From Myxococcales bacterium (GTDB lineage Bacteria; Myxococcota_A; Polyangia; Palsa-1104; JAEUJZ01): DNA of 38,856 nt. The notes below the pieces were generated by a model. The model worked only from the letters and a program-made list of their open reading frames with translations, was not told the DNA's origin and did not search any database. Numbering within the stretch: position 1 is the stretch's first letter; each line of letters opens with the position of its first letter. The stretch covers positions 64,001-102,856 of the forward strand of contig JAVQWY010000014.1 of assembly GCA_033578775.1 (NCBI GenBank), read 5' to 3'. Both the position numbers and the translations under genes were made by a program. Below are positions 9,562 through 37,510 of this stretch, one piece after another.

Positions 9562-11259
9562 ATGAAAATCGTTTGCGAAAACTGCGGCACCAAATACTCG
9601 ATCGCGGACGAAAAGGTCAGCGGGAAAGTATTCAAGCTGCGGTGCAAAAAGTGTAGCCATGTCATCGTGGTGCGCGGAACCACCGAGAGCGAGGCGGCGC
9701 ATCAGGAGGCGCCAGCCCCAGCTGCACCCGGGCCAGCGTCGGAGCAGGCGAGCTCAGCCGGCCCGCCCCCCGATGCCGTCTGGCATTTGGTCATCGATCG
9801 GGAGCAGGTCGGCCCGATGACCGCGGCCGAAGTTCGCAACAAATTTGCCAGCGGAGTCATCGACGGCGAGACCTACATCTGGCGCGAGGGGTTTGAGGAC
9901 TGGGTGAAGCTGTCTTCCGTCGCGGAATTTCAGGATCTCGGCGGCGCGCAGCGCGGCAACGGCCAGGAGCAGACCACGCGCCGCTCGGACAGGGCGGACC
10001 TGTTCCGCGACGCTGGTCGGGACGAGGCACCAGCGCCCGGGGCGGACCTGTTCAACCCCCCCATGACCTCGTCGCCCACGGCCGCCACCATCGTGGCCAG
10101 CAGCCCAACATCGTCTGCCAGCGCCCCCTTGCGGTCCCAGCAGCCCCCAGGGGACCTTGTGAGCGCCAGCAGCGGTCCCTCTCCGGCGGTGGACATCCGG
10201 TCGCTCACCGGAGCGCGCAACGAGAACTCCGTTCTCTTCTCGCTCAACAACCTGCAGGCGCTGGCCAGTGGGTCGAGTTCCAGCTCTTCCGGTGGGGCCG
10301 GTGCGCGACCCGGGTATGCAGACTCCCGGACCGAGGGGTCTGGCCTGATTGACATCCGCGCCATGGCAGCGCAGACGCTGTCGGCGAGCAGCAAATTCGG
10401 CACAGCCGGCAGCAAACCGGATGACCTGCCGATGGTCAACGAGGCGCCCCTGTTTTCTCCGGTGGCGCCAGCGATGTTGATGCCAATTCCCGAGCCGCCT
10501 GGCATGCCAAAGTGGGTCTGGGCGGTGGTCGGGGTCGGCGGTGTGATGTTCCTGGCGATGACGGCGGTCATCATCTGGGTGGTGCGCTCATCGCCGCCCC
10601 CAGCGCCGGCGCCACAGCCGACGGTCGTTGTGGCCAGTGGCCCTGGAGGCATGGCACAGCCAGGTTCTGCGCCGACAGGGCAGCCAGCCTCCCCCGGTCC
10701 GACCGCGACCGAGTCTGGGCCAGGCAAGCCCACTGCCAAGGACGAGGGGGCAGTGGCAGAGGCCGAGCGCAAGCGGCGTGCGCGGGAGGCGCGGGACAAG
10801 GAGCGCGAGAAGCCTTCGGCCCCTAAGGAGAAGGAGCCCATCGCCTCCACCACCCCAGTGGCTCCCGCCGTGGAGCCCCCTGCTGAGCGCCGGCAGCCCA
10901 AGCCCAAGCCCAAAGACGATCTCGATGCTCTGCTCGACAGCGCCACGGGAGGGCCGAGCGCCGCTCGTCCCAAGGTCGAGTCGGTGCGGAAGGATGCACC
11001 CGAGCAGCTCAGCATGGACGAGATCAAGAGCGTGCTCAAGGGGGTCAACGCCTCGGTGCAGTCCTGCAGTCAGGGCAACCCCGGGACGTTCATTGTCAAG
11101 ATGACCATCGGCCGCAACGGCCGCGTCACCGACGCTTCCGTCCCGGGCAAGGCCGGTGATCCCACTGCAGATTGCGTGGTGCGCGCTGTCAAGGCCGCTC
11201 GTTTCCCTGAATTCAGTGGTGATCCGCAGTCCCTGAGCTACCCCTTCATCCTGCGATAG
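9562..11259 (+). CDS. MJ0042-type zinc-ribbon / GYF(DUF4339)-like membrane protein with Pro/Ser-rich linker and TonB-C-like C-terminal domain
   Basis: N-terminus MKIVCENCGTKYSIADEKV...KLRCKKCSHVIVV has the double CxxC. WHLVIDREQVGPMTAAEVRNKFASGVIDGETYIWREGFEDWVKLSSV is GYF-like. There is one TM (VWAVVGVGGVMFLAMTAVIIWVV) and a low-complexity P/A/S region. C-terminus FIVKMTIGRNGRVTDASV...CVVRAVKAARFPEF resembles a TonB C-terminal fold. Confidence 0.65.
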   Translation: MKIVCENCGTKYSIADEKVSGKVFKLRCKKCSHVIVVRGTTESEAAHQEAPAPAAPGPASEQASSAGPPPDAVWHLVIDREQVGPMTAAEVRNKFASGVIDGETYIWREGFEDWVKLSSVAEFQDLGGAQRGNGQEQTTRRSDRADLFRDAGRDEAPAPGADLFNPPMTSSPTAATIVASSPTSSASAPLRSQQPPGDLVSASSGPSPAVDIRSLTGARNENSVLFSLNNLQALASGSSSSSSGGAGARPGYADSRTEGSGLIDIRAMAAQTLSASSKFGTAGSKPDDLPMVNEAPLFSPVAPAMLMPIPEPPGMPKWVWAVVGVGGVMFLAMTAVIIWVVRSSPPPAPAPQPTVVVASGPGGMAQPGSAPTGQPASPGPTATESGPGKPTAKDEGAVAEAERKRRAREARDKEREKPSAPKEKEPIASTTPVAPAVEPPAERRQPKPKPKDDLDALLDSATGGPSAARPKVESVRKDAPEQLSMDEIKSVLKGVNASVQSCSQGNPGTFIVKMTIGRNGRVTDASVPGKAGDPTADCVVRAVKAARFPEFSGDPQSLSYPFILR

Positions 11260-12107
11260 CGGCGCCACGGCAGGAAGTGCAGAAACCCAGGCTCACACCG
11301 GATACCGACGAGTTGTCCCTTCATCCTACGATAGCGACGCCATCCCAACCCTGCCAGTGCGAGGAGCCCCATCAGGCCTGCCCCTGCCAGCAGGAGCAGA
11401 CGATGCGGCACCAGCGAAGGCGGCGCCCGCTCGAGAAAGCGCACTGTGATCGAGCGGTCCGACAGCGACGACGACGGCGGACCATAGAAACGAAACGTCG
11501 TGATGCGCTGCGGCTGCTCCGGTCGCGGTGCTCCCTGACAGGACTCGATCAGCTCTATACCCGGCCCCGGCTCGACGAGGATTTCGATCTCACCTGCCGG
11601 CGCAAGCCCGACGCGATCTTCATAGCGAAGCTCCTGCACCTGTCCAGATGCCACGCGCACCGAGGCAGATGTATCGACCGAAAGCGCGGCCGGGGCGACG
11701 GCATCGCCGGCAAGCCCGATCGTGGGCTCTGCAAAATGGAGCGCCACGGGCTGGCCGTTTGCCTCCAGCCGGAGTCCGGCCCTGGCCTCCCCTAGGAGCT
11801 GCCGCGCCAGGGCAGCCCCCTCGGCCTCACTGAGGCGTCCGTCGCCATCGCGATCGGCCCCCCGGCGCAGGTTGAACGCCGGGATGTCACCCACCATGAT
11901 GGTATAGGTGAGCCGCACCTGCCCACGTGGCATGAGCGCCAGCCTGCTGTATCGGTTCACCACGGAGAGGGTAAACTGCGGATGCCCTGGTGCCGGAGCC
12001 GCACCGCCAAGAATAACCAGGGCCATGGTCAGGGCAGCGCGCCATGAACAGGGCACCATGCCGCGCAGGTAACACGAGGACTGCCCCATGGCAAGCACCC
12101 GGTGCAT
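11238..12107 (-). CDS. secreted EF-hand (DxDxDG) protein with C-terminal TM anchor; probable start at 12057
   Basis: Signal peptide MVPCSWRAALTMALVILGGAAPAPG. EF-hand loop DRDGDGRLSEAE. C-terminal TM LLLLAGAGLMGLLALAGLGW followed by an RRYRRMKG tail that appears twice because of the DNA repeat. The 3' end overlaps the convergent zinc-ribbon gene by 22 bp. Confidence 0.45.
   Translation of the reverse strand: MHRVLAMGQSSCYLRGMVPCSWRAALTMALVILGGAAPAPGHPQFTLSVVNRYSRLALMPRGQVRLTYTIMVGDIPAFNLRRGADRDGDGRLSEAEGAALARQLLGEARAGLRLEANGQPVALHFAEPTIGLAGDAVAPAALSVDTSASVRVASGQVQELRYEDRVGLAPAGEIEILVEPGPGIELIESCQGAPRPEQPQRITTFRFYGPPSSSLSDRSITVRFLERAPPSLVPHRLLLLAGAGLMGLLALAGLGWRRYRRMKGQLVGIRCEPGFLHFLPWRRYRRMKG
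11241..11346. repeat. imperfect ~30-bp direct repeat (period 76 bp) spanning the stop codon of the zinc-ribbon gene
   Basis: ccccttcatcctgcgatagcggcgccacgg (11241-11270) versus tcccttcatcctacgatagcgacgccatcc (11317-11346). Confidence 0.7.
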
Positions 12108-19477: not shown

Positions 19478-20605
19478 ATGCATCCACTATACTGCCAGAC
19501 GAAGACCGTGCGTCCTTATGCCCGTCGGAAAACCACGCCGCAGCTCGTTGTAGTCGCGGCGCTCCTGGCGCTGCTGGTACACGGGCTTGTGCTGCTCCTG
19601 CTGGTGGGCAGCGGGGCCCTGCAGACGCTGCCGCTTGGACGCACCGTGGTGGCCGAGCGCACCGAGGGGTTGCTGCGCTTGGACGAGCCACCCATCGAGA
19701 TCGAGTGGCTGGTGGATCAGCTGGACCGGCCCCAGCAGGAAACCCCTGAGGAGCAGCGCCGCCGACAGGAGGAGGAAACCACGCGCCCCGAGGGACAGGT
19801 GGTGGACATCGCCCGCCCGGCCCTGGAGCAGCGTCCCGACCAGGCGCGCTTTCTGGCCGAGTACGACTCGACGGTCGAGCGGGAGACGCGAGGACCCCCA
19901 GGGCGGTCCCAGGCCGGCGCCCTCCAGCCCGCTGCCCGGCCCACCCCTCCGCCCCGCCCAGCTCGTCCTGGCCGCGCTGGCCCCCCCGGGCCGCTGGCGC
20001 TCCGGTCGGCCTCGTCGCCCCCCGCGGCTGAGAGCAGCCAGGACCTGGCCCCCGATGGCACGGCCCGGTGGCAGCCCGGCGGCCCCCATCGGACGCCCTC
20101 CCAGCCCGGCGGTGGGCAACCCGCCGCCCCTGCCACGCCCAACTTGTTGGCCACCCCCGAGCTCCTGGAGCGGGTCCTGGGCCAGGGAGCCGGCTCGCCC
20201 GACTACCTGAAGGACATCGACGACGGCGAGTACACCGCCCTAAACGCCAAGCGGTGGAAGTTCGCCTCGTTTTTCAACCGGCTCAAGCAGGCCGTGGCGG
20301 ACGAGTGGCACCCGGACACCGTCTACCTGCGCCATGATCCGTCGGGCAACATCTACGGCATCAAAGATCGCATCACGGTGCTGCGCGTGCACCTGAAGCC
20401 CGACGGCCGCATCGCCGCCATCCAGATCCTGCGCCCTTCGGGCGTCGAGTTTCTCGACGATGAGGCCGTGGGTGCCTTCAAGCGTGCCCAGCCCTTCCCC
20501 AACCCCCCCCAGCAGCTGGTCGAGCCCGACGGGTTGATCCGGTTCAATTTTGCCTTCATCTTTGAGTTGTCGGGTCGGACCTCATTCAAGGTGTTTCGCT
20601 ACTGA
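19478..20605 (+). CDS. TonB-family energy transducer
   Basis: N-terminal TM (LVVVAALLALLVHGLVLLLLVG), Pro-rich spacer, and C-terminal TonB domain (YGIKDRITVLRVHLKPDGRIAAIQILRPSGVEFLDDEAVGAFKRAQPFPNPP). The ORF tool's upstream GTG at 19448 is also possible. Confidence 0.65.
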   Translation: MHPLYCQTKTVRPYARRKTTPQLVVVAALLALLVHGLVLLLLVGSGALQTLPLGRTVVAERTEGLLRLDEPPIEIEWLVDQLDRPQQETPEEQRRRQEEETTRPEGQVVDIARPALEQRPDQARFLAEYDSTVERETRGPPGRSQAGALQPAARPTPPPRPARPGRAGPPGPLALRSASSPPAAESSQDLAPDGTARWQPGGPHRTPSQPGGGQPAAPATPNLLATPELLERVLGQGAGSPDYLKDIDDGEYTALNAKRWKFASFFNRLKQAVADEWHPDTVYLRHDPSGNIYGIKDRITVLRVHLKPDGRIAAIQILRPSGVEFLDDEAVGAFKRAQPFPNPPQQLVEPDGLIRFNFAFIFELSGRTSFKVFRY

Positions 20606-20690
20606 GGCCTCCCAGCGCGGCAACCGCGTCCTCGTAGCGCTCGACTGCCAGGACCATTCAAGGTGTTTCGCTACTGAGGCCTCCCAGCGC
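20583..20690. repeat. perfect 36-bp direct repeat x2 separated by a 36-bp unique segment, covering the stops of two convergent genes
   Basis: cattcaaggtgtttcgctactgaggcctcccagcgc at 20583-20618 and at 20655-20690. Confidence 0.9.
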
Positions 20691-22034
20691 CCCGCGCAGG
20701 CTGTAGAGATCGTCCAGATACTGTAGGATCAGCTCCCGCACCGCGCCTCGGTCGGGCAGACGGGCCATGAGCCCATAGGCTGCAGCCTGGCCTTGGCCCG
20801 ACCGCTCCGGGTGGGCGCGCACTTCCTCCACGGCGGCGCGCAGGTCGGCCAGGTAGGCCTGCTCCACCCCCTGGTGGGCCGGCGTGATCATGAGGTGGAT
20901 GGCACTCGGGTGCTGCTGCCGGTCTACGTGCCAGCCGCGCGCCGCCAGCGCATCGGCCACGGCCAGGATGTCCACCTCGTCGGAGGTGAAGGCAAAGACG
21001 CTCATGTCCGGCTGGCCCAGCACCCGCAGCCCGGGGATGGCCGCGATGCCCTCCAGAAAGGCGCGGCTGGTGCGCATGATCTGCTCGGCACGGCGCAGGT
21101 AGCCCTGGCGCCCCGTGGACATCAGGGCGGCCCAGGCAGCGGCAATGGCCCCACCGGGACGCGTGCCGGCCAGGGTCGGCGAGCCAAAGAGACCGCCCGG
21201 CCAGTCGCTGGTGACGAAGAACTGGTACCGACGCAGCGCCCGGTTGCGGTAGAGCACCACCGAGGCCCCCTTGGCTGCAAAGCCGTACTTGTGTAGGTCG
21301 GCCGACAGCGATGTGACCCCGGGGACGCTCAGGTCAAAGGGCGGCACCGGATGGCCCAGCTCCCGCACAAACGGCAGCAGAAACCCCCCCAGGCAAGCAT
21401 CCACGTGCATGCCCAGCCCCCGCTCCTGGGCCAGCGCCGCCAGGGCCGGGATGGGATCGATCACCCCATGCGGATAGGCGGGAGCCGAGCCGACAAGCAG
21501 GATGGTCCGTGGTGTGATCGCCGCACGGACGGCATCCACATCCACGCGCAGGTCCGGCCCCAGGGGCACGTGCACGGCCCGCACCCCTAGGTAGTGGGCG
21601 GCCTTGTCGAAGGCCGGATGGGCGGAGACGGGCAGCACCATCTCTGGCTCCACCAGATCTGGACGCTGCGCACGCGCCCAGTCGCGGTAGGTCTTTACGG
21701 CGAGCAGGATGCTCTCTGTCCCGCCCGAGGACATCGTGCCGCAGGCCTCGGGTCCTCCGCCCAGCAGGCTGGCAGCCATGGCCACCACCTCGTTCTCCAT
21801 GCGCAGCAGGCTGCGGAAGGCGGTGGGGTTTAGGGCATTTTCGTCGAAGAACAGGCAGTAGGCCTGTTGCAGCAGGGCCCTGTGCTCGTCGCCGGCGTGG
21901 TAGACGAGGCTGAAGGTGCGGCCCTGGCGCCAGCGGGCGTCCTCGCTGCGGAGCGACTCCATCTGGCGTAGCACCTCCTGGTGTGGCAGGCCCTGCTCAG
22001 GCAGGTGAGAGCGAGGCGGGGGTAGCTCAGACAT
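20658..22034 (-). CDS. PLP-dependent group II decarboxylase-fold enzyme, sphingosine-1-phosphate lyase family
   Basis: LNPTAFRSLLRMENEVVAMAASLLGG, SGGTESILLAVKTYRDWA and SLSADLHKYGFAAKGASVVLYRN, where HK is the PLP lysine, closely parallel the SPL motifs. Start is at MSELPPP; the 176-aa N-terminal ORF extension was rejected. Confidence 0.8.
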   Translation of the reverse strand: MSELPPPRSHLPEQGLPHQEVLRQMESLRSEDARWRQGRTFSLVYHAGDEHRALLQQAYCLFFDENALNPTAFRSLLRMENEVVAMAASLLGGGPEACGTMSSGGTESILLAVKTYRDWARAQRPDLVEPEMVLPVSAHPAFDKAAHYLGVRAVHVPLGPDLRVDVDAVRAAITPRTILLVGSAPAYPHGVIDPIPALAALAQERGLGMHVDACLGGFLLPFVRELGHPVPPFDLSVPGVTSLSADLHKYGFAAKGASVVLYRNRALRRYQFFVTSDWPGGLFGSPTLAGTRPGGAIAAAWAALMSTGRQGYLRRAEQIMRTSRAFLEGIAAIPGLRVLGQPDMSVFAFTSDEVDILAVADALAARGWHVDRQQHPSAIHLMITPAHQGVEQAYLADLRAAVEEVRAHPERSGQGQAAAYGLMARLPDRGAVRELILQYLDDLYSLRGALGGLSSETP

Positions 22035-22312: not shown

Positions 22313-23893
22313 TCAGAAGCGGAACTGCACCGCCAGGCGCGCCTCGCGCTCCAACGTGGTGGGGGCGTGCAGGTCGGTGCCGAGGCGGCGCTCCATGAAG
22401 AAGGCGGTCACGGTGCCGATGCTGCGATAAAAGTACAGGTGCACCGCGGCGCGCCACTGCAGCTCGTCCAGCTGGCGCTGCATCTCTGAGCTTAGCATGG
22501 CCGGCGGGTGGTCGAACCCCGAGGCGACGAACTGGCCCACGTCCATGCCCAGCATGAGCCACTTGGACACCGCCAGCACACCGACCTGGATGTTGTAGGC
22601 CAGCCCCCAGGAGCCGAACTCAATCTCGCGCTTGCCATAGGTTTCGGCCTGGATGAGCAGGCGCCGGTAGCGCAGCACGGCGAACAGGTTGGCTGCGGGG
22701 AAGCGCTCCAGCGGCCGCTGCTCCCACTTGACGCCCAGGGCTAGGGCCACGGCCAGCGGCACCGGCGTGTACAGCAGCGGGCTGTCCCATCGGCTGAAGA
22801 AGCCAACCACGTTCCAGTGGATCTGAGCGGCCACCTGGTAGGCGAAGTTGCTGTTGTCCTCGGTCAGGAAGGTGCCGCCGACGTTGCCGGTAAAGCGCCC
22901 GGTGCCGGCCGAGGCCAGGGCACGGTACAGCAGGCGCCCGCCCCGGTCGATGGGCCCGCCAAACTCCACAGCCACGCTGTAGGGCTGCTGGAAGGCGTTG
23001 ACCAGATAGAAGGGCGGGTCGAGCAGAAGCTGCTTGTAGATCGAGATGGCCAAGATGGACGACAGGCCGCCGGTGCCGCTGCTGACGTTGGCGTAGTGGC
23101 CGCGCTTGCCCAGCGGCACCTGAAACATGGCAAAGGTCAGCCGCGGCGTGCGCTCGGCGCGCACGTTGAGCAGGAAGAACGAGTTGCGGATAAACGGGAT
23201 GGGGCCGAGCACGCGCAGCTGCAGGCGCGAAAAGCGGGCGTCGAAGGTGTTGTCCTGCGCCTGGTAGGCGACCTCGGTGCGTGCCACCACGGAGAAGGAG
23301 AAGTTGGGCTGCCCCTGGCAGACGGAGATGGAGGGGTCGAAGCGGCAGCCAAAGTCCTGGCAGTCGGTGCGGCCGTCGCCGTCGTTGTCGATGCCATCGG
23401 CGCACAGCTCGTCGCTGCGTTCGCCGTCCTTGTCGTTGCCGCGGCCGATGAGATCTTCTACGGACATGCCTGGGCCCAGCTCGGGCACCGGCTCCGACGC
23501 CATGGGCTGCCCCGTGCCCTGAGCGCCGCCGGTTGCCAGCGTGGCCTGGGTGCGCTGATAGGAGCCCTGGCACACAGAGATACCGGGCACCTGACAGTCC
23601 GGGTCATCGCAGTCCATCTGGCCGTCGCCATCGTTGTCGATCCAGTCGCTGCATAGGGAATTGGTGGACTCGGGCCGCCCGTCGGGACGGCAGTGGGGCG
23701 AGTCGGCGCAGTCGGCATCGCCGCAGTCATAGACAGTATCGCCATCGTTGTCGATGCCATCGTTGCACTCGGTCTCGCGCGCCGGCTCGGCCGCAGCGAC
23801 AGGTCTGGCCGGGCACAGCAGCACCGCCAGCAGCGCAGACAAGACGACCATGTCCCCTCGGGCCGTGGGTCGCATCGGTCGCATGGCTCGCAT
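22313..23893 (-). CDS. outer-membrane beta-barrel protein with N-terminal Cys-flanked DxDxDG repeats
   Basis: Signal peptide. Four copies of C.DGIDNDGDG..DC.D.DC. The C-terminal ~350 aa have beta-barrel texture and end in the Phe-terminal AVQFRF. Confidence 0.6.
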   Translation of the reverse strand: MRAMRPMRPTARGDMVVLSALLAVLLCPARPVAAAEPARETECNDGIDNDGDTVYDCGDADCADSPHCRPDGRPESTNSLCSDWIDNDGDGQMDCDDPDCQVPGISVCQGSYQRTQATLATGGAQGTGQPMASEPVPELGPGMSVEDLIGRGNDKDGERSDELCADGIDNDGDGRTDCQDFGCRFDPSISVCQGQPNFSFSVVARTEVAYQAQDNTFDARFSRLQLRVLGPIPFIRNSFFLLNVRAERTPRLTFAMFQVPLGKRGHYANVSSGTGGLSSILAISIYKQLLLDPPFYLVNAFQQPYSVAVEFGGPIDRGGRLLYRALASAGTGRFTGNVGGTFLTEDNSNFAYQVAAQIHWNVVGFFSRWDSPLLYTPVPLAVALALGVKWEQRPLERFPAANLFAVLRYRRLLIQAETYGKREIEFGSWGLAYNIQVGVLAVSKWLMLGMDVGQFVASGFDHPPAMLSSEMQRQLDELQWRAAVHLYFYRSIGTVTAFFMERRLGTDLHAPTTLEREARLAVQFRF

Positions 23894-23899
23894 CCTTGG

Positions 23900-25123
23900 C
23901 TACTCACATACGCGACGGCCTGGGCACACCGTCACCAGCGGGTTGTGGCTGCAATCCCAGTCGCGGCAATCTATGAACCCGTCCAGGTCGTTGTCGAGCC
24001 CGTCGGAGCAGCGGGCATTGGCGGCGGCCGCATCGGGGCCGAGGCTCTCTTGGCAGGCCTGGCGCACATCGATGGTGGCGGCCTGGCTGCAGGCCCGGTC
24101 CTCGCAGTCGATGTAGCCGTTGCCATCGTTGTCGAGGCCGTCGGTACAGCGAGCGAAGGTATTCTCCAGGCGGGCAGCGCAGTAGGCCATCAGGTCGGGG
24201 TCGCCTGAGCGCGAGCAGGAAAAGTCGGCGCAGTCGGTGTAGCCGTTGCGGTCGTTGTCCACCCCATCGCTGCAGCGCGCCAGCGTGTTTTCCAGCCGCT
24301 CGGCGCAGTAGGCACGCACGGCCGCGTCAGGGGAGGTGGCGCAGGCGCGGTCGGCGCAGTCGGTGTAGCCGTTGCGGTCGTTGTCCACCCCATCGCTGCA
24401 GCGCGCCAGCGTGTTTTCTGGCAACAGGTCAGCGCACAGGGCCTGGATGGCCGGGTCGGCCGAGCGGGCGCAGTCGAAGTCGCGGCAGTCGGTGTAGCCG
24501 TCGCCGTCGTTGTCGAGGCCGTCGGCGCAGCGCTCGGGGGTGTTTTCTGGCATGCGGCAGCGCTCCAGGCGCACGCAGTCGGGGTCGCGGCAGTCGATGT
24601 GGCCGTCGCCGTCGTTGTCCAGTCCGTCGCTGCAGCGGGCGTCGGTAAGTTCAGTGCAGACGGTGACAAAGGGGCTCTGGCGGCAGCCGAAGTCGCGGCA
24701 GTCGGTGTAGCCGTTGCGGTCGTTGTCCACCCCATCGCTGCAGCGCGCATCGGTATTTTCGATGATGCAGCAGGTCTCGGGGATGGCGCGGCAGCTGGCC
24801 TCGCCGCAGTCCCAGTTGCCATCGCCGTCGTTGTCCACCTGGTCGGTGCAGGTGGCGTAGGTGGCCTCGCGACGGGGGGGTTCAGGGATGGGGGGAACCA
24901 TCTCGCCGCAGAAGGTGGAGGTGAAGCGGCAGTCGGGGTCGCGGCAGTCGACCTGGCCATCGGCGTCGTTGTCGAGGCCGTCGCTGCAGTTTTGATCCTC
25001 GGTCTCGTAGCCCAGCACCGGATAGGGCGGGCGCTCAAAGCAGCCCAGCGCCAGCAGGGCGGCAGCAGGCAGTACGGCCACCAGGCGGCCGGGACGCGGC
25101 GAATCGTCAGATGGGCGGCGCAT
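23900..25123 (-). CDS. lipoprotein composed of ~9 tandem ~41-aa Cys-flanked DxDxDG (Ca-binding-loop-like) repeats
   Basis: Lipobox LLALGC. Repeats of ENT[LF]ARCSDGVDNDRNGYTDCAD..C....P.....YCA. The underlying DNA repeats are near-identical. Confidence 0.65.
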   Translation of the reverse strand: MRRPSDDSPRPGRLVAVLPAAALLALGCFERPPYPVLGYETEDQNCSDGLDNDADGQVDCRDPDCRFTSTFCGEMVPPIPEPPRREATYATCTDQVDNDGDGNWDCGEASCRAIPETCCIIENTDARCSDGVDNDRNGYTDCRDFGCRQSPFVTVCTELTDARCSDGLDNDGDGHIDCRDPDCVRLERCRMPENTPERCADGLDNDGDGYTDCRDFDCARSADPAIQALCADLLPENTLARCSDGVDNDRNGYTDCADRACATSPDAAVRAYCAERLENTLARCSDGVDNDRNGYTDCADFSCSRSGDPDLMAYCAARLENTFARCTDGLDNDGNGYIDCEDRACSQAATIDVRQACQESLGPDAAAANARCSDGLDNDLDGFIDCRDWDCSHNPLVTVCPGRRVCE

Positions 25124-29770: not shown

Positions 29771-29933
29771 GGTGCTCCTTGTGCGTGCTGGCCCATCATA
29801 CTGGCCAGGGGCCGTAAGGTCCAGGCCACCAACCGGCGGGTGGCGCTTGGGCCGGGACGAGGGTCTGCGCCCTTTGCCCACATAGGGGCGAGCTGGACCC
29901 ATGGGGGGGCGGGGCGGCGGGAAGGGCTTGCGC

Positions 29934-30156
29934 ATCCAGGCCCCAGAAGAGTGCAGGGGCTGACGCAAAGGAGCGAATGCAGGCTTGAGTAGCGATAAAC
30001 CGGGTGAATCCAGGCCCCAGAAGAGTGCAGGGGCTGACGCAAGGGAACCTGGGCCTGGCGGAGGAGACTAGGGCTTGCGCAGGAACTTAGCTCCCGTGGC
30101 CTGTCTCCCGGAGTAACAGGGACCTGGGCCTGGCGGAGGAGACTAGGGCTTGCGCA
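29934..30156. repeat. two adjacent repeat-spacer-repeat structures (35-bp perfect repeats A and B, each x2, spacers 39-40 bp)
   Basis: Repeat A (atccaggccccagaagagtgcaggggctgacgcaa) lies at 29934-29968 and 30008-30042. Repeat B (acctgggcctggcggaggagactagggcttgcgca) lies at 30047-30081 and 30122-30156. B copy 2 contains the sterol methyltransferase stop codon. Confidence 0.9.
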
Positions 30157-31168
30157 CCAGAAAGTAGAACATCGGCGTGAAGATGCCGGTTCGCCCCCCC
30201 TCGACGAGGTAGCCCGCCCCGCGCTGCAGGAACGAGCTGACCGCGGTGGCGCCCTTGGGTGCCACGCCCACGGCCTCCAGGCTGCGGACCATCTGGTGGG
30301 TCAGCCATCGGCCCACGGGGCTGGAGCGGAACCCGCTGGGGGTGTACCAGGGGGCTGCCAGGGGCAGGTACCAGGGCGTCTCCGGGTCGGCGGTCAAGGC
30401 CCGGTCCTCGCTTTCCAGCACCTCGAAGCCGACCGCGCGCAGCGCTTCCAGCACCTCCGGCACCGTCGCCAGCTCGGGCAGCGCGTTGCCTTCCTCGATG
30501 CCCTGCCGGATCTCCCGATGGCGGGGGTTTTGCGAGTCGTACCGGTCGGTCACGCACCACTCGTAGGCGGCAAAGTGCGCGCCCGGCTTGAGCACGCGGA
30601 AAACCTCGCCGTAGATTTGCCGCTTGTCCGGCGCGTGGCAGGTGGCCTCGATGGCATAGGCGGCATCGAAGGTGCCATCTGGCACCGGAACGGACAGAAA
30701 GTCGCACTTGAGGAGCTCGCACAGGTGGCTCAGGCGGGCCGCCTCGTTGTGTTTGCGGGCCCGTGCGATCTGGTAGTCGTTGTTGTTCAGGCCGACGATG
30801 GTGGCGCCGCTAAAGCGGGCAATGGAGCGCATCGGCCCCCCCACCCCGCAGCCGAAATCGGCCACCCTCATGCCCGGCCGCAAGCCCAGGCGCAGCGCCA
30901 AAAAGTGCTCGTAGCGCGCGATGGAAGCAGCAAATGCCTCGCCGCGGAAGCGCGGCGCAAAGTGAAAGGACTGTCCCCAGCCGAACTCATAGAAATCCGT
31001 GACAAGATCGTAAAAGTTGTTGACCAGCGTCGCATAGGACTGTTTGCGACGTTCCGTGCTGCCGCCCCGGGAACGGTCATACTGGGCGGTGTAGTTGTCC
31101 ACGGTGGCCTGAACCTCGTCCCGGGCGAGGGATGTCTGACAGATGTCGGTGACCGATGGTGCGTCCAT
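30143..31168 (-). CDS. sterol 24-C-methyltransferase (ERG6/SMT1 family, SAM-dependent)
   Basis: Near-colinear match to ERG6 hallmark blocks: YEFGWGQSFHFAPRFRGEAFAASIARYEHFLA, FGCGVGGP, VGLNNNDYQIARA, YAIEATCHAP, VLKPGAHFAAYEWCVTDRYDSQNPRHREI, GGRTGIFTPMFYFLVRKP. Start at MDAPSV; the upstream ORF extension was rejected. Confidence 0.85.
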   Translation of the reverse strand: MDAPSVTDICQTSLARDEVQATVDNYTAQYDRSRGGSTERRKQSYATLVNNFYDLVTDFYEFGWGQSFHFAPRFRGEAFAASIARYEHFLALRLGLRPGMRVADFGCGVGGPMRSIARFSGATIVGLNNNDYQIARARKHNEAARLSHLCELLKCDFLSVPVPDGTFDAAYAIEATCHAPDKRQIYGEVFRVLKPGAHFAAYEWCVTDRYDSQNPRHREIRQGIEEGNALPELATVPEVLEALRAVGFEVLESEDRALTADPETPWYLPLAAPWYTPSGFRSSPVGRWLTHQMVRSLEAVGVAPKGATAVSSFLQRGAGYLVEGGRTGIFTPMFYFLVRKP

Positions 31169-31314: not shown

Positions 31315-32652
31315 ATGAGCGGAGAGCCTGAGCAGCCTGTTCCTGTCCCTGTCTATGACGTTTGCGTTGTCGGTGCCGGCCCGAGCGGTGCCACGTGTGC
31401 ATACTATCTGGCGCAGCGCGGCAAGCGGGTTTTGTTGCTGGAGAAAAAGACCTTTCCGCGCGACAAGCTGTGCGGCGATGCCGTCTGCACCAACGCCCAG
31501 ATCCACCTGGACCGCATGGGCGTGCTTCGGGAGCTAGAGGAGGAGGGCACCGGTCACTGGGCTGCAGTGGGGGGCCTGGTCAGCCCGCGGCGCATCGGGT
31601 TCATTGGCAACTCGGCCAAGCAAAATGGCCGCCCGCTGGTGATGGCCGTCAAGCGCATGATCCTCGACGAGAAGATTGCGCGCGCGGCGCAGCGGGCCGG
31701 GGCCCTTCTGGTGGAAAACACCACCGTGACCGGTGCCTCTCTCTCGCGGGCCGAAGGGGTGTGGACGGTCCAGGCAACCCGCAACGGGGCGGCCGTGTCC
31801 TACCGGGCGCGGGCGCTGGTGGCGGCAGATGGGGCGCTGTCGCGGCTCACCCAGGCCCTTGGCATCCCGACGCCGCCGCCAGACAGCGTGTGCAGCCGGG
31901 CCTACATCAAGGCCGGCACGCATCAGTTCGACATGGACGGCGTGGTCTTTTATGAGCTGGACATGGTGCCCGGCTACTGCGCCCTGTTCCGCGAGGCTGG
32001 CGGCGACGTCAACTACTGCGTCTATATCATCCCGGGCGGGCGCTGCTCCATTGACGATCTTTACGAGATGCACCACCGCATCCTCCGCGACAACCCGTAT
32101 GTGCGTCGGGCGGTCGGTCCCCACGCGGTCATCGACAAGATGAAGGGGGCACCGCTGCGCCTGGGTGGCATCCGCAAAAGCTACCACGACCACCTGCTCA
32201 TTGTCGGCGATGCGGCCGGACACATTGACCCGCTCACCGGCGAGGGCATCCATCATGCCATGGACGGTGGGTACCTGGCCGCCGAGGTGCTGTGCGAGGC
32301 CCTGGCAGTCGGCGACCTCAGCGAGCGGTTCCTGCGCCGCTATCAGGACCGCTGGATGCGCGCCTTTGGCCGCGATTTCTTCTGGTCCAAGAAGATGGCC
32401 CAGGTCTTTGCGAAGGCGCCGATTCTGGTCGATGCCAGCGCCGCGGTCATGCAGCGCAAGGGCGCGGACTCGCTGCTGGAATGGGGCCGTGTCATGACCG
32501 GCGTGGCCCCCAAGCGCTACTTTCTGCGGCCGGAGGTGGCGCTGCCCCTTCTTGTGGAGACGGGACGCCAGGTCGTCCGGCAAGCCTTGGGGAAGATCGT
32601 TCCAGATGTCAGGGTCTCTCTCGATGGAGTGGTTCGGCCCTGGATGCCCTAG
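31315..32652 (+). CDS. geranylgeranyl-reductase-family FAD-dependent oxidoreductase
   Basis: YDVCVVGAGPSGATCAYYLAQRGKRVLLLEKK is the Rossmann GxGxxG. LCGDAV. LIVGDAAGHIDPLTGEGIHHAM is GGR/ChlP-like. Alternative start at 31294. Confidence 0.8.
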   Translation: MSGEPEQPVPVPVYDVCVVGAGPSGATCAYYLAQRGKRVLLLEKKTFPRDKLCGDAVCTNAQIHLDRMGVLRELEEEGTGHWAAVGGLVSPRRIGFIGNSAKQNGRPLVMAVKRMILDEKIARAAQRAGALLVENTTVTGASLSRAEGVWTVQATRNGAAVSYRARALVAADGALSRLTQALGIPTPPPDSVCSRAYIKAGTHQFDMDGVVFYELDMVPGYCALFREAGGDVNYCVYIIPGGRCSIDDLYEMHHRILRDNPYVRRAVGPHAVIDKMKGAPLRLGGIRKSYHDHLLIVGDAAGHIDPLTGEGIHHAMDGGYLAAEVLCEALAVGDLSERFLRRYQDRWMRAFGRDFFWSKKMAQVFAKAPILVDASAAVMQRKGADSLLEWGRVMTGVAPKRYFLRPEVALPLLVETGRQVVRQALGKIVPDVRVSLDGVVRPWMP

Positions 32653-32662
32653 TGGTGCTCCC

Positions 32663-33061
32663 TTCGGGGCGGGGGCCCCGGTTCGCGGGGCAGGGGGGCA
32701 GCGGACTCAGGTGGGCCGGGAAAATATCCCAAGGCGCTTGAGAGGCGAGGGAGAGCACAAGGCTCGAGCCGGTGTCAATCAGGTTTGCCCCCGGGAAAAT
32801 ATCCCAAGGCGCTTGAGAGGCGAGGGCCCCGGTCCGCGGGGCAGGGGGGCAGCGGACCCGAGCCGGCTGGCGCCGCAGGGCTCTCCGGCTGGGGGCGGAG
32901 CAGGCGCGTCGGGAAGGACACGGGGCCCTGCGCCCGGGCACCCGCTGGGGCTGCGGCCGTGTCATCATCCTGCCATATCCTGCCATCGGCGGGCGGAGAT
33001 GCGCGCTACAGGAGATCCCTCGCCCCCCGCTGGGGCTGCGGCCGTGTCATCATCCTGCCAT
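32663..33061. repeat. complex nested direct-repeat region filling the intergenic space
   Basis: C is a 34-bp repeat with 1 mismatch at 32673-32706 and 32824-32857. D is a 36-bp perfect repeat at 32716-32751 and 32791-32826. E is a 36-bp perfect repeat at 32941-32976 and 33026-33061, overlapping the downstream ATG. Confidence 0.9.
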
Positions 33062-35096: not shown

Positions 35097-36025
35097 CCCC
35101 CCAGCTGGGCCTGGTCTGCCTGTCGGCCGGACCCGAGGTCCGCTTCCGCACCACCACCCGTGCCTTCCTGCACCGCCACCGCCCCTGCGAGGCCCAGCAG
35201 CTGCTCCGGGCACTCTACCGCGACAACCTCGCCCGCCTGGAACGCGCCTTCGCCTTCTGCGCCTCGCTCGGCATCTCGCTCTACCGCATGCCCTCCAGCC
35301 TCTTTCCCTTCGCCGACGCCGAGGGCGCCCCCCTGCTCGAAGAGCTCGCCGAGCCGCTGGCCGCCCTGGGCCGCCAGGCCCGCCAGCAAGGCCTCCGTCT
35401 GCTGCTCCACCCCGACCAGTTCGTCGTCCTCAGCTCCGACTCGGCCGCCACGGTGCGCAACGCCCACCTCATGCTCGCCATGCAGGGACGCCTGATGGAC
35501 CTGCTCGACCAGCCCCGCTCCCCCTGGGCCGCCATCAACATCCACGGCGGCAAGGCCGGACGCCTGGCCGCCCTGGTCCGCGAGATCCGCTCCCTGCCCG
35601 ACGCCGTGCGCACCCGCCTCACCCTGGAAAACGACGAGCGCGCCTACGGCAGCGCAGAGATCCTAGAAGCCTGCCAGCAGGCCGGCGTGCCCATGGTCTT
35701 CGACGCCCACCACCACCTTGTTCACGACCGCCTGTCCTCCTACGACGACCCGAGCATCGCCCACTGGCTGGCTGCCGCCCGCCAAAGCTGGCCCGACCCC
35801 TCCCTGCAGGTGGTCCACATCTCCAACGGCCGCGACCACCTGCAGGACGCCCGCCACAGCGACTGGATCACCCACATGCCCACCGCCTACCGCCACGCCC
35901 CCTGGATCGAGGTGGAGGCCAAAGCCAAAGACGAGGCCATCCGCCGCCTCCGCCAACGCTGGCGCCCCCTGCGAGCCCGACCCTCCGGCCCCCGCGCGCC
36001 CGGTGCCCAGCAAGCAAACCGCTAG
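35093..36025 (+). CDS. uvsE: UV DNA damage endonuclease
   Basis: LGLVCLS, SLGISLYRMPSSLFPF, LLLHPDQFVVLSS, NIHGG, LTLENDER and HIS of the UVDE/UvsE family. ATGA overlap with the ECF sigma stop. Confidence 0.85.
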   Translation: MTPQLGLVCLSAGPEVRFRTTTRAFLHRHRPCEAQQLLRALYRDNLARLERAFAFCASLGISLYRMPSSLFPFADAEGAPLLEELAEPLAALGRQARQQGLRLLLHPDQFVVLSSDSAATVRNAHLMLAMQGRLMDLLDQPRSPWAAINIHGGKAGRLAALVREIRSLPDAVRTRLTLENDERAYGSAEILEACQQAGVPMVFDAHHHLVHDRLSSYDDPSIAHWLAAARQSWPDPSLQVVHISNGRDHLQDARHSDWITHMPTAYRHAPWIEVEAKAKDEAIRRLRQRWRPLRARPSGPRAPGAQQANR

Positions 36026-36127
36026 GGCCCCCCGCCAGCCGCCCCCCCGCACGCCGCTCCCCCCAAGATGCCCTGCGAGCCCGACCCTCCGGCCCCCGAC
36101 GCGCCCGGTGCCCAGCAAGCAAACCGC
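35967..36127. repeat. 56/57-bp direct repeat (1 indel) with 104-bp period; copy 1 is the last 18 codons of uvsE
   Basis: ccctgcgagcccgaccctccggcccccg(a)cgcgcccggtgcccagcaagcaaaccgc at 35967-36022 and 36071-36127. Confidence 0.85.
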
Positions 36128-36136
36128 CCCTGCCCT

Positions 36137-37510
36137 TTACGGCGCGACCATCAAGCAGCGGGTGACCGGCTGCAGGATGTCGGCCGTCACATAAAGATAA
36201 TACCGTCGCCCGCTCACCAGCGGCGCCGGCGGCCCCGACAGCGGGAAACGCTGCCGCCCGCCCGCAGGCACCTGCCCATAGCGCACCGTGCCGCTGGCCC
36301 ACGGCTCCCCCTCCGGCGGCACATCGATGCGCCAAATCGTCCCAGCGGGCAAATCCAGATTCGGCGGCACCGTCGGCGAGGCCGCCCCCTCCTCCAGCAC
36401 ATACAGGTAGCGCGCCCGACCCCCACGCCACACGATCCGCCCATCCGGCGTCACCCCCTCCCCCCGCGTGCAGGCCGAGGGCCGGAACAACCGCTGCTCG
36501 TCGATCGGCCCAAACACATACCGCATCCCGGCAAACATCTCCTGGCGCAGCCCCCGCCGCTCCGCCTCCCGGACAAAGAAGCGCCGCATGCGGGCATCGT
36601 CCGTCGTGACAAAGATGGTGTGATGGGGGTTGTCCGGCGTGGCCCGCGAAAACCCGTTGTTCTCCTCTGGCGGATAGGCCCCCAGCCCAGAGGTGTCGAT
36701 CCAGCCCGCCCCCATGGCGATGCCGCGATCAAAAAACCCGTTGATGAAGTTGCCAGGCGCGTCCAGGTACCAGTTGGACGGCCCCCGCGGCGCGCTGCTG
36801 GAGTGGCAGCAGACGCAGGCCGTGGACTCGATCTGGCTCCGCACCCAGGCCAGCTCCTGCGCATACTCCGGATCCTGCAGCCGCTCATCCGGTCGGTCCG
36901 CCCCAGGGGCAGTCGGCACGGGATAGTAGGGTCGCTGGGTGCGCACCCGGTCGCAGCTCGCATAGTCGGCAAAGCGCCGTCCCGGCTCCGTGGCCCCAGA
37001 GATCATCTCCCAGGTGCACACCTGCCCCCCTGGCGACCGACCGGGCGGCTCCCCTGGCAGCGGGTCCTGGCATCGCCGCACCGGCTGCTGGAACACGACC
37101 AGCCCCCCGCCGCGGTCCTGGTCCGGATCGACCCCCCCACAGATCGGCGCCGGGTCGAACGCCCCCCGTCCGAAAAACTCACACCCCCGCAGCGTGGAGC
37201 CGCACGCCCCCGGGTCGTTGCCCGGCAGGCTGGCCCGGATGTAGCGGCCCTCCTGCTCCCAGATGCAGTAGCCCAGCACCTGCTCCAGGTTGCAGGCCTG
37301 GCCGATCGTCACCTCCCCCCCCCACGAGTCGCAGTCTTGCCGAATCTGCTCCTCGGTCCAGTCCCCGTGGTAGTCGCGACACTCGAACTTGCGGCTGAAG
37401 CGGTTTTCATACCGGCACGAGCCCGCGATCTCCTCCGGAATGACCGGCACTTCTTTCTTGGCGCAGCCCCCCAGCACAGCGACCAGGACACACATGATGC
37501 GGCACAACAT
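36137..37510 (-). CDS. hypothetical lipoprotein containing a single CXXCH motif
   Basis: Lipobox VAVLGGCA. Cys-rich N-terminal region. CVCCH matches the heme-c-binding pattern; a possible PSD1/DUF1587-like relation is unverified. Confidence 0.45.
   Translation of the reverse strand: MLCRIMCVLVAVLGGCAKKEVPVIPEEIAGSCRYENRFSRKFECRDYHGDWTEEQIRQDCDSWGGEVTIGQACNLEQVLGYCIWEQEGRYIRASLPGNDPGACGSTLRGCEFFGRGAFDPAPICGGVDPDQDRGGGLVVFQQPVRRCQDPLPGEPPGRSPGGQVCTWEMISGATEPGRRFADYASCDRVRTQRPYYPVPTAPGADRPDERLQDPEYAQELAWVRSQIESTACVCCHSSSAPRGPSNWYLDAPGNFINGFFDRGIAMGAGWIDTSGLGAYPPEENNGFSRATPDNPHHTIFVTTDDARMRRFFVREAERRGLRQEMFAGMRYVFGPIDEQRLFRPSACTRGEGVTPDGRIVWRGGRARYLYVLEEGAASPTVPPNLDLPAGTIWRIDVPPEGEPWASGTVRYGQVPAGGRQRFPLSGPPAPLVSGRRYYLYVTADILQPVTRCLMVAP

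Follow-up and report, generated by a model that had tools for sequence, protein, structure and literature searches.

Structure of the repeat-insert-repeat locus

The stretch of DNA analysed here, hereafter the window, is 38.9 kb long and includes two convergent genes, encoding a TonB-type protein and a putative decarboxylase, whose 3' ends lie in two copies of the same short repeat. This locus, hereafter site A, is made up of the following features:

19508-20605, plus strand: TonB C-terminal-domain protein, 365 aa as annotated at NCBI, with a conserved C-terminus ...SFKVFRY
20583-20618: site A repeat, copy 1, 36 nt, containing the last 7 codons and the TGA of the TonB-type gene
20619-20654: site A insert (S_A), 36 nt, 69% GC, occurring once in the window
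20655-20690: site A repeat, copy 2, 36 nt, containing the last 10 codons and the stop of the PLP-decarboxylase gene on the minus strand
20658-22034, minus strand: PLP-dependent decarboxylase / sphingosine-phosphate-lyase-like protein, 458 aa, MDW8282007.1

The initial annotation had described a perfect 36-bp repeat, a 36-bp spacer and a second 36-bp repeat, and both the coordinates and the 100% identity of the two copies were confirmed. The repeat, CATTCAAGGTGTTTCGCTACTGAGGCCTCCCAGCGC, has a start-to-start distance of 72 nt; two copies of it were found in no dinucleotide-preserving shuffle, the window has no third copy at up to 3 mismatches, and TRF reported no tandem array at the site. The predicted folding of a transcript spanning repeat, insert and repeat was no better than that of shuffled sequences (z = -1.4).

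The TonB stop codon lies in copy 1 (TGA at 20603-20605) and that of the decarboxylase in copy 2 (20658-20660 on the minus strand), as originally annotated, and the last 10 decarboxylase residues, ALGGLSSETP, are encoded by the repeat. It had further been proposed that the genes once shared a 36-bp 3'-3' overlap. That the ends overlapped holds; the length does not, since with a single repeat copy the open reading frames would share the 20 nt from base 4 to base 23 of the repeat, including both stops. Similarly, the small minus-strand ORF exists as a mechanical reading frame (20586-20657, 23 aa), for which no family or structure was found, and shows no sign of being a gene; it is an automatic consequence of the duplication.

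The C-terminus ...ELSGRTSFKVFRY* is kept among TonB homologues, indicating that repeat bases 1-23 represent the original 3' end of the TonB gene. Homologues of the decarboxylase terminate 1-4 residues past ...DDLY, so its ALGGLSSETP tail appears to be a lineage-specific read-on. Both outer junctions therefore look ancestral, as is predicted by target-site duplication, and these findings support the earlier proposal of a recent, repeat-generating insertion that separated the two convergent genes, with 36 bp of target being duplicated. The comparison proposed with this claim, a single-copy orthologous site, was not found: the close relatives comprise a second metagenome-assembled genome (MAG) and two SRA runs, all from the same population, while more distant relatives are without the TonB-decarboxylase adjacency, their nearest decarboxylase homologues being at most 73% identical. 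In the searched genome contigs the best match was 66%, and the site A repeat was absent from the searched metagenome contigs.

Independent read assemblies

Logan assemblies of raw reads, built with a k-mer length which we take to be 31, provided a view of the locus that is independent of the MAG. In run SRR15826901, the last base of contig L058 is 20612 (base 30 in copy 1) and the first base of contig L060 is 20661 (base 7 in copy 2). A perfect 36-nt repeat forces a de Bruijn graph to break at exactly these positions, and the 30-nt overhangs agree with the k-mer length. A known 69-nt coding repeat (24224-24292), used as a control, likewise breaks at its base 30 (24253). The same pattern recurs at two further repeats in the window (sites C and E, listed below): at site C, contigs from each of two runs stop 30 nt into copy 2 (30127), and at site E contig L059 begins at 33032, with the last 30 nt of copy 2. 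Breaks at base 30 mean that each repeat has two different contexts in the reads. The assembly artefact which the initial annotation had wanted excluded was thus ruled out at site A.

Related units across the window

Site A had been viewed as a single event; however, it is one of at least eight similar repeat-insert-repeat units in the window, namely sites A to G and two older ones, unit X and event 0. The units other than site A are given below as repeat / insert / repeat:

11235-11267 / 11268-11309 / 11310-11342: site G, old, period 75
29907-29934: R0a, the degenerate oldest copy of the site C repeat, with the same right boundary ...GGGCTTGCGCA
29934-29968 / 29969-30007 / 30008-30042: site B, period 74
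30047-30081 / 30082-30121 / 30122-30156: site C, period 75
32668-32703 / 32704-32744 (S_X) / 32819-32854: older unit X, repeats ~89% identical
32716-32751 / 32752-32790 / 32791-32826: site D, perfect, period 75
32941-32976 / 32977-33025 / 33026-33061: site E
35967-36022 / 36023-36070 / 36071-36127: site F, repeats of 56/57 nt with one indel, period 104/105

Exact repeat lengths in the five young units are 36, 35, 35, 36 and 36 nt, and those of the older units, whose boundaries were fixed using rRNA alignments, are 33-36 nt. The periods are 72, 74, 75, 75, 75 (+10), 75 and 76, the last being that of unit X before event D. The target duplication is thus of constant length with site F (56/57 nt) as an outlier, and the membership of site F in this class of units is uncertain. 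The inserts are of spacer length (36-41 nt), mutually unrelated and unique in the window; at site E the insert consists of 39 nt followed by a 10-nt tandem copy of the repeat end. Divergence between the copies ranges from none to ~15%, and this age series argues for a long-running natural process.

All units lie at gene boundaries or intergenic sites. Five transitions separate the two copies of site G, which is located where the ends of 9562-11259 (plus strand) and 11238-12107 (minus strand) converge; the protein of the latter gene terminates in WRRYRRMKG twice. Copy 2 of site C contains the stop of a sterol methyltransferase gene (30143-31168, minus strand), site E adjoins the ATG (33060) of a class-V aminotransferase, and site F lies between the convergent UvdE gene and 36137-37510 (minus strand), the first three bases of its insert being the UvdE stop codon. 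Site G is co-linear in contig L058; the second MAG encodes identical versions of the proteins that units F and G have altered, and both UvdE and the site G protein are the same in the second MAG and in Logan.

Several units were built upon earlier ones. Site D is nested inside unit X and has duplicated most of S_X, and the block duplicated at site B is an older insert, S0, so that both units show array-like growth by duplication of older inserts. R0a matches the site C repeat with a score of 29 (p<0.0005 under two nulls) and, together with the two site C repeats, makes the B/C locus a three-repeat mini-array. The sequence re-duplicated in unit C is exactly the repeat of the older event and shares its right boundary (p<0.0005), and this re-use argues for some site preference. 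A shared, boundary-anchored target motif was not detected across six sites, a small sample (317 vs a null of 320 ± 16).

The units are dense and clustered, with at least eight in 39 kb and five young ones within 12.5 kb, while a 28.9-kb Logan contig on the left is without any perfect repeat. No true unit was found in ~1.2 Mb of other loci examined as controls, which marks the units as specific to this genome; apparent units in contigs L013 and L041 were ordinary 15-, 35- and 63-nt tandem coding repeats.

Origin of the inserts

Three of the nine inserts are fragments of 23S rRNA, in both orientations and with sharp ends at the repeat boundaries, a source typical of naive adaptation:

29971-30007: core of S_B, E. 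coli 23S ~1243-1285, sense on the plus strand, 36/37 identical to metagenomic 23S
30082-30121: S_C, E. coli 23S ~929-965, antisense on the plus strand, z = 13.4
32704-32744: S_X, E. coli 23S ~1613-1653, sense on the plus strand, 38/41

The chance of three rRNA inserts, if inserts were drawn randomly from DNA, is 1e-5 to 1e-7. Combined with the recurrent geometry, this indicates a specific mechanism.

For the other six inserts (S_A, S_D, S_E, S_F, S_G and S0) no source was identified in the searches made. A weak gapped alignment of S_A to E. coli 23S 25-58 (z ~3) was not reproduced when retested against 120 metagenomic rRNA loci, 79 of which cover this region (z = -0.5), and is attributed to chance; an rRNA origin of S_D, S_E, S_G, S0 and S_F was rejected likewise. 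Local templating, by template switching or flank duplication, was rejected as no match in the window exceeded chance; the inserts lack terminal inverted repeats and resemble neither their flanks nor the rest of the window. A foreign origin was also rejected, with no exact cores in IMG/VR and no blastn match in GenBank phages or PLSDB plasmids; the search of the site A spacer against mobile-element databases suggested by the initial annotation was thus run, and S_A had no viral, phage or plasmid match. S_A is therefore regarded as a 'spacer' by analogy with the other units. No Rfam family reached its gathering threshold in the window, and nothing was reported at E<=10 around sites A-E; Rfam could not have detected the rRNA pieces, since fragments of 36 nt go unreported by its large rRNA models.

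Discussion

On balance, we lean towards reading site A as the footprint of an ectopic ('off-array') integration of a spacer by the CRISPR adaptation integrase, Cas1-Cas2, which would probably be of a type III-associated or reverse-transcriptase-linked flavour. An integrase carrying a 36-41-nt prespacer would attack the two chromosome strands 36 bp apart, and gap repair would copy these 36 bp on either side of the insert, converting L-R-T into L-R-S-R-T. At site A, the target would have been the 36 bp containing both stops of the convergent TonB and decarboxylase genes, so that both genes retained intact ends and, in place of a 20-bp overlap, came to be 52 bp apart. Over a long time, seven or more further sites in the window would have been hit in this way. 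23S rRNA, in the form of RNA or of rDNA fragments, would have supplied part of the inserts, and earlier units would sometimes have been re-used, such that one locus grew into a three-repeat mini-array.

That the enzyme behind these units is Cas1-Cas2 is what we infer from them, and several observations count against it. The 38.9-kb window contains no cas gene, CRISPR array, integrase or reverse transcriptase. No common target motif was detected, while off-target sites in the literature are described as similar to the native leader-repeat. The density of units is far above anything reported for natural off-target integration, their clustering is odd, and site F (57/48 nt) is off the ruler.

These features bear on a rather unlikely alternative, in which an integrase or retro-insertion system with no relation to CRISPR introduces nicks with a 36-bp stagger and adds copies, 36-41 nt long, of cellular RNA or DNA, for example through a reverse-transcriptase-dependent process templated by abundant RNAs such as rRNA. 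The geometry and the rRNA inserts would fit it equally well, and the absence of a motif, the high local density and the lack of cas genes in the window are easier to understand for a promiscuous, dedicated system. However, the window contains no candidate gene for such a system either, and we know of no enzyme class besides Cas1-Cas2 that gives target duplications of ~30-40 bp around spacer-sized inserts; those of transposases are 2-15 bp and those of casposases 14-15 bp.

Repair of double-strand breaks with capture of filler DNA appears improbable. Here, fill-in of staggered breaks would duplicate the overhang, and the ends would be joined, non-homologously or through microhomology, around a captured piece of rDNA, cDNA or other DNA. 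A 10-nt tandem, ATCCTGCCAT, at the junction of the site E repeat and its insert hints at junction homology, the end of the site B repeat resembles the rRNA just upstream of the source of S_B (10/15), and the units lie at gene ends and intergenic sites, where convergent transcription could cause breaks. Random breaks, however, would not yield a constant 35-36-nt overhang in at least six independent events, nor would fillers confined to 36-41 nt be expected, and most junctions are sharp and without microhomology.

It is highly improbable that the units are artefacts of assembly or library preparation, the true sequence having one repeat copy and no insert. The source is a MAG, and no single- or two-copy orthologue from a different population was found. 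Against this, the independent k=31 assemblies break at base 30 at sites A, C and E (C in two SRA runs), the diverged older units are co-linear in Logan, and the effects on proteins are identical in the second MAG; the age series, the rRNA inserts and the constant 36-nt duplication would not be expected of an artefact. Least probable of all, to the point of being negligible, is an ordinary tandem duplication or a small, MITE-like mobile element with a long target-site duplication: direct repeats around an insert are the classical signature of transposition, but the inserts are mutually unrelated, three of them being pieces of rRNA, and do not form a defined multi-copy element with terminal inverted repeats, and a simple 72-bp tandem duplication is rejected at site A because the 36 nt past copy 2 (CCCGCGCAGG...) are unlike S_A.

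Off-array integration by Cas1-Cas2, the reading we prefer, has a precedent in a 2018 study by Nivala, Shipman and Church (Nat Microbiol), which reportedly observed non-canonical spacer integration in vivo and the genesis of 'neo-CRISPR' loci. The events are said to have been rare, to have come to light when E. coli with over-produced Cas1-Cas2 was deep-sequenced, and to have occurred at sites resembling the native locus, with reportedly only a few putative natural cases being proposed. The units described here resemble such events in having a spacer-sized insert and a ruler-set target duplication, in lying outside arrays, in being open to a second hit and in being able to seed a new array. They differ in that at least eight fixed events occur in 39 kb of a wild genome, with no detectable common target motif and three rRNA-derived inserts, and in that the enzyme is deduced. 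Passages of two later papers (PMC6698737, PMC7054753) credit Nivala et al. (2018) with off-array Cas1-Cas2 integration in vivo and a proposed role for it in the origin of new CRISPR loci.

Ribosomal RNA has been found to be a hot-spot or top source of spacers for the type III-A Cas1-Cas2 of S. epidermidis, whose naive acquisition draws on rRNA and tRNA loci (PMC8860600, where P. furiosus I-A/I-G is also cited for rRNA spacers) and for the type III-D RT-Cas1 of V. vulnificus, which acquires them from RNA (PMC6821258). In S. epidermidis, the presence of the effector complex brings selection against spacers derived from rRNA and tRNA (PMC8860600). The window shares with these two systems the use of rRNA as a major source, in either orientation; their spacers, in contrast, entered a canonical array. 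Repeats and spacers in type III-A and RT-Cas1 systems are ~36 nt in size. Ectopic units would not be processed into crRNA and would thus escape the selection against rRNA spacers.

As in transposons and casposons, staggered cleavage and gap repair would duplicate the target on both sides; those, however, are defined multi-copy elements, whereas the units have duplications of 35-36 bp and inserts that all differ and measure just 36-41 nt. Mini-CRISPR arrays, consisting of two repeats and one spacer, occur on viruses and plasmids, and their repeats match the CRISPR repeat family of the host. The units have the same repeat-spacer-repeat layout of ~100 bp but differ in that each repeat is simply taken from the chromosome at that place, ends of housekeeping genes included. 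Nor are they canonical CRISPR arrays, as each unit has its own repeat, there is no match to an Rfam CRISPR-DR family and the window is without cas genes.

Natural cases of off-array Cas1-Cas2 integration are few and only putative, the activity being known mainly from over-expression experiments. If the units are such cases, the window would hold a dense series of differently aged events in a wild organism, which would bear on the de novo origin of CRISPR arrays, with one locus already at three repeats, and on the mutational cost of adaptation, as housekeeping genes have had their stop codons, C-termini and 5' regions altered by the insertions. They would also show what type III-like adaptation modules sample in nature, with rRNA inserts that would be purged from functional arrays by autoimmunity being preserved in inert ectopic units. 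If cas1 were absent, the finding would point instead to an integration mechanism that is not yet known. A broader possibility, which we raise tentatively and with some doubt, is that this lineage has a highly active ruler-type integration, by a promiscuous and possibly reverse-transcriptase-linked Cas1-Cas2 or by a new non-CRISPR integrase, that places 36-41-nt copies of cellular RNAs, including 23S rRNA, at gene boundaries chromosome-wide. Such an activity would amount to a natural 'transcript recorder' that remodels gene ends, with the birth of CRISPR arrays in progress. At a practical level, units of this kind can break short-k assemblies and mimic tiny CRISPR arrays in annotation pipelines.

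Results

Site A belongs to a family of repeat-insert-repeat units

What is of interest here is a family of units and its likely origin, beyond the single site A (20583-20690). This site reads ...GGTCGGACCT / CATTCAAGGTGTTTCGCTACTGAGGCCTCCCAGCGC / GGCAACCGCGTCCTCGTAGCGCTCGACTGCCAGGAC / CATTCAAGGTGTTTCGCTACTGAGGCCTCCCAGCGC / CCCGCGCAGG..., i.e., two identical 36-nt copies of the repeat CATTCAAGGTGTTTCGCTACTGAGGCCTCCCAGCGC (20583-20618 and 20655-20690) around the 36-nt insert S_A, GGCAACCGCGTCCTCGTAGCGCTCGACTGCCAGGAC, of which no second occurrence was found in the window with up to 3 mismatches allowed. Neither pattern, the repeat pair or the unique insert, was reproduced in any shuffle. The initial annotation had described this 36/36/36 layout with the stop codon of each convergent gene in a separate copy, and both coordinates and stops were confirmed.

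Genes flanking site A
19508-20605, + strand: TonB-type gene with TonB_C/TonB_2 domains; stop 20603-20605, within copy 1
20658-22034, − strand: PLP-decarboxylase gene (Pyridoxal_deC); stop 20658-20660, within copy 2

Homologues of the TonB-type protein share the near-uniform C-terminal end ...ELSGRTSFKVF(R/K)Y(Q), so bases 1-23 of the repeat represent the genuine 3' end of the TonB-type gene. Decarboxylase homologues terminate 1-4 residues past the conserved ...DDLY, thus the ten repeat-encoded residues ALGGLSSETP are a lineage-specific read-on opposite the TonB gene end. The two outer junctions (L-R, R-T) appear ancestral, as target-site duplication around an inserted sequence predicts, and the proposal of a recent duplicating insertion was right in outline. 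The ancestral overlap, put at 36 bp, needs correcting, as the single-copy state gives a 20-nt ORF overlap (repeat bases 4-23). Through the insertion the two 3' ends, which had overlapped by 20 bp, came to lie 52 bp apart, with both proteins unaltered; nothing suggests that it was selected, and the small ORF (23 aa) also pointed out there is an automatic by-product of the duplication with nothing to support gene status. The decarboxylase of MAG2, a second MAG from the same population, differs from that of the window by one substitution, located in the repeat-encoded tail; this L-to-V change is a G-to-C at base 24 of the repeat (20655-20690), adjoining the TonB stop position.

Units B-E were found by a whole-window repeat scan for the same geometry, and the older unit G by a sliding-identity scan, which, leaving aside the TSP3-type coding repeats, scored 8 hits vs 0 in each of 20 shuffles.

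Other units in the window (copy 1 / copy 2)
11235-11267 / 11310-11342: unit G, older; period 75, five transitions between copies
29934-29968 / 30008-30042: unit B; repeat 35 nt, period 74
30047-30081 / 30122-30156: unit C; repeat 35 nt, period 75, contains the sterol methyltransferase stop codon
32668-32703 / 32819-32854: unit X, older than D
32716-32751 / 32791-32826: unit D; repeat 36 nt, period 75, nested in X
32941-32976 / 33026-33061: unit E; repeat 36 nt, period 85 (75 plus a 10-nt tandem copy), adjoins a start codon
35967-36127: site F; same layout, repeats 56/57 nt, C-rich insert 48 nt

Site F, being off the 36-nt ruler, may be something other than this class. Earlier units have been re-used, partly in register: C re-duplicates an old repeat; B and D each duplicate an old insert. 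Upstream of B/C the site-C repeat occurs a third time in degenerate form (29907-29934; score 29, p<0.0005), with the same ...GGGCTTGCGCA boundary. All units lie at gene boundaries (A, F and G at convergent 3' ends), as would be expected if purifying selection had removed insertions within genes. The young units form a cluster, with five in 12.5 kb (20.6-33.1 kb), and a 28,946-bp contig of the Logan read assemblies (L058) spans window 1-20612 and, judged by its size, ~8 kb past the left edge unbroken, hence without a perfect repeat of at least 31 nt. No true units of this kind were found in other loci totalling 1.2 Mb, nor in ~54 kb of sequence from the nearest relatives; the apparent ones proved on inspection to be ordinary tandem coding repeats.

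Some units shape coding sequences. In unit G the stop in copy 2 has been lost, so the ORF runs through the insert into copy 1, and this old insertion therefore lengthened the protein by 25 residues. The C-terminus of this protein (11238-12107, − strand), encoded by 11238-11342, ends ...GWRRYRRMKG-QLVGIRCEPGFLHFLP-WRRYRRMKG, the same in MAG2 and Logan. The site-F insert begins with the UvdE stop TAG (36023-36025); were the insert absent, this ORF would continue for >25 codons into the convergent gene. At unit E a 10-nt tandem, ATCCTGCCAT|ATCCTGCCAT (32967-32986), sits exactly at the junction of copy 1 and insert, and could stem from post-insertion slippage or from homology between target and incoming fragment.

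Raw reads support the repeats

As the window derives from a 102,856-bp contig of a MAG ('Myxococcales bacterium'), an assembly artefact had to be weighed. Logan contigs, assembled from raw SRA reads, align to the window at 99.6-100% identity and end at predicted de Bruijn breakpoints, k-1 = 30 nt into a perfect repeat longer than k, which we take to be 31, in agreement with the observed overhangs.

Logan contig ends within units
20612: site A, copy 1
20661: site A, copy 2
30127: site C, copy 2, in two runs (SRR15826901, SRR25904939)
33032: site E, copy 2

As a control, a known 69-nt coding repeat also breaks Logan (at 24253), while unit G, with its diverged copies, is crossed co-linearly. Since the ends sit at k-1 positions, each repeat has two read contexts; these reads, together with the age series, rule out misassembly for practical purposes, and an artefact is very improbable. 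Furthermore, F and G each shape protein C-termini, and the proteins concerned are identical in MAG2 and Logan.

The MAG2 accessions form the runs MCS6914880-889 (decarboxylase to geranylgeranyl reductase), MCS6914684-688 (aminotransferase to esterase) and MCS6913616-617 (site-G genes), which point to contig breaks within the 408-bp intergenic region of D/E and at some place in 12.1-20.7 kb; such breaks would fit a second assembler having had difficulty with these repeats or with allelic variants of them. Logan contig L059 ends at 36047 inside the C-rich site-F insert, a position that no window repeat explains; it may reflect poor coverage or a repeat located outside the window.

Three inserts match 23S rRNA

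No templating of the inserts by nearby sequence was found. Against the E. coli rrn operon, S_B (the insert of B, named likewise below) matched 23S ~1243-1285 (34/43, z=9.6), the older S_X 23S ~1613-1653 (32/41, z=7), and S_C gave a good match at 23S ~929-965. A library of 120 metagenome contigs was collected by the S_B core, with rRNA present in 120/120. Here S_B matched at 36/37, S_X at 38/41 and S_C at 28/29 and 35/39 (gapped z=13.4), the last with 108 hits scoring ≥24 bits vs a shuffle mean of 3.4. The matches end exactly at the repeat boundaries, which gives insert lengths of 37 nt for S_B, ~39 nt for S_C and 41 nt for S_X, and a length of 36 nt for the older repeat. S_B and S_X are oriented one way and S_C the opposite.

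For S_A, S_D, S_E, S_G, S_F and S0 (an older insert duplicated by B), nothing above shuffles indicated rRNA origin, and no match for these inserts was found in viral, phage and plasmid collections. If inserts were random draws of genomic DNA, 23S fragments in 3/9 would have a probability of 1e-5 to 1e-7. Repeat B terminates at its 3' side in GGGGCTGACGCAAAG (29956-29970), which resembles GGAGCTGTCCCAAGA, the rRNA directly upstream of the S_B source (L169), at 10/15; the similarity may be fortuitous, or microhomology may have directed the choice of site.

Discussion

Any mechanism has to explain a constant 35-36-bp duplication, unique 36-41-nt inserts, recurrence over time, the partly in-register re-use of earlier units and rRNA as a preferred insert source. 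To our knowledge, Cas1-Cas2, the CRISPR adaptation integrase, is the sole enzyme known for such duplication and insert sizes; its ruler duplicates one repeat length per spacer. Given this ruler, the unit geometry and the literature on rRNA spacers and off-array integration, the best explanation, and on balance a probable one, is that a type III-like or RT-linked adaptation module integrated spacers ectopically, producing the units. Off-array integration is described in vivo, and new CRISPR loci have been proposed to arise in this way (Nivala et al. 2018, via PMC6698737, PMC7054753). rRNA genes are the most abundant spacer source for the RT-Cas1 of V. vulnificus (PMC6821258), and in a study of the type III-A system of S. 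epidermidis, for which rRNA loci are likewise a documented spacer source, rRNA/tRNA-derived spacers were counter-selected with the effector complex present (PMC8860600). Ectopic units, being without a processable repeat, would escape such counter-selection, a possible reason for the persistence of rRNA pieces at these sites. That S_A may be a spacer is argued by analogy with the other units.

Against ectopic integration, the density and clustering are far above published natural cases and site F has the wrong size. No motif common to the integration sites was detected, and no cas, integrase, transposase or RT gene lies within the window. A non-CRISPR integrase or retro-insertion system of a new kind is a possible, though unlikely, source. 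Break repair with filler capture is improbable, the constant lengths disfavouring it, and a transposon or tandem duplication is hardly credible.

Other genes in the window

The remaining content is housekeeping genes including purA, pfk, pyk, two-component regulators and ExbB/D. Two adjacent secreted proteins (22313-25123, − strand), for neither of which a Pfam family was reported, contain numerous Asp-rich Cys repeats similar to thrombospondin type 3 (DxDxDGxxDCxD); their DNA forms repeats of 105-138 nt, and a 69-nt pair among these is perfect. A sterol C-methyltransferase gene (Sterol_MT_C; 30143-31168, − strand) lies head-to-head with that of a geranylgeranyl-reductase-family flavoprotein (31315-32652, + strand), a pair that hints at sterol modification in this myxobacterial lineage.
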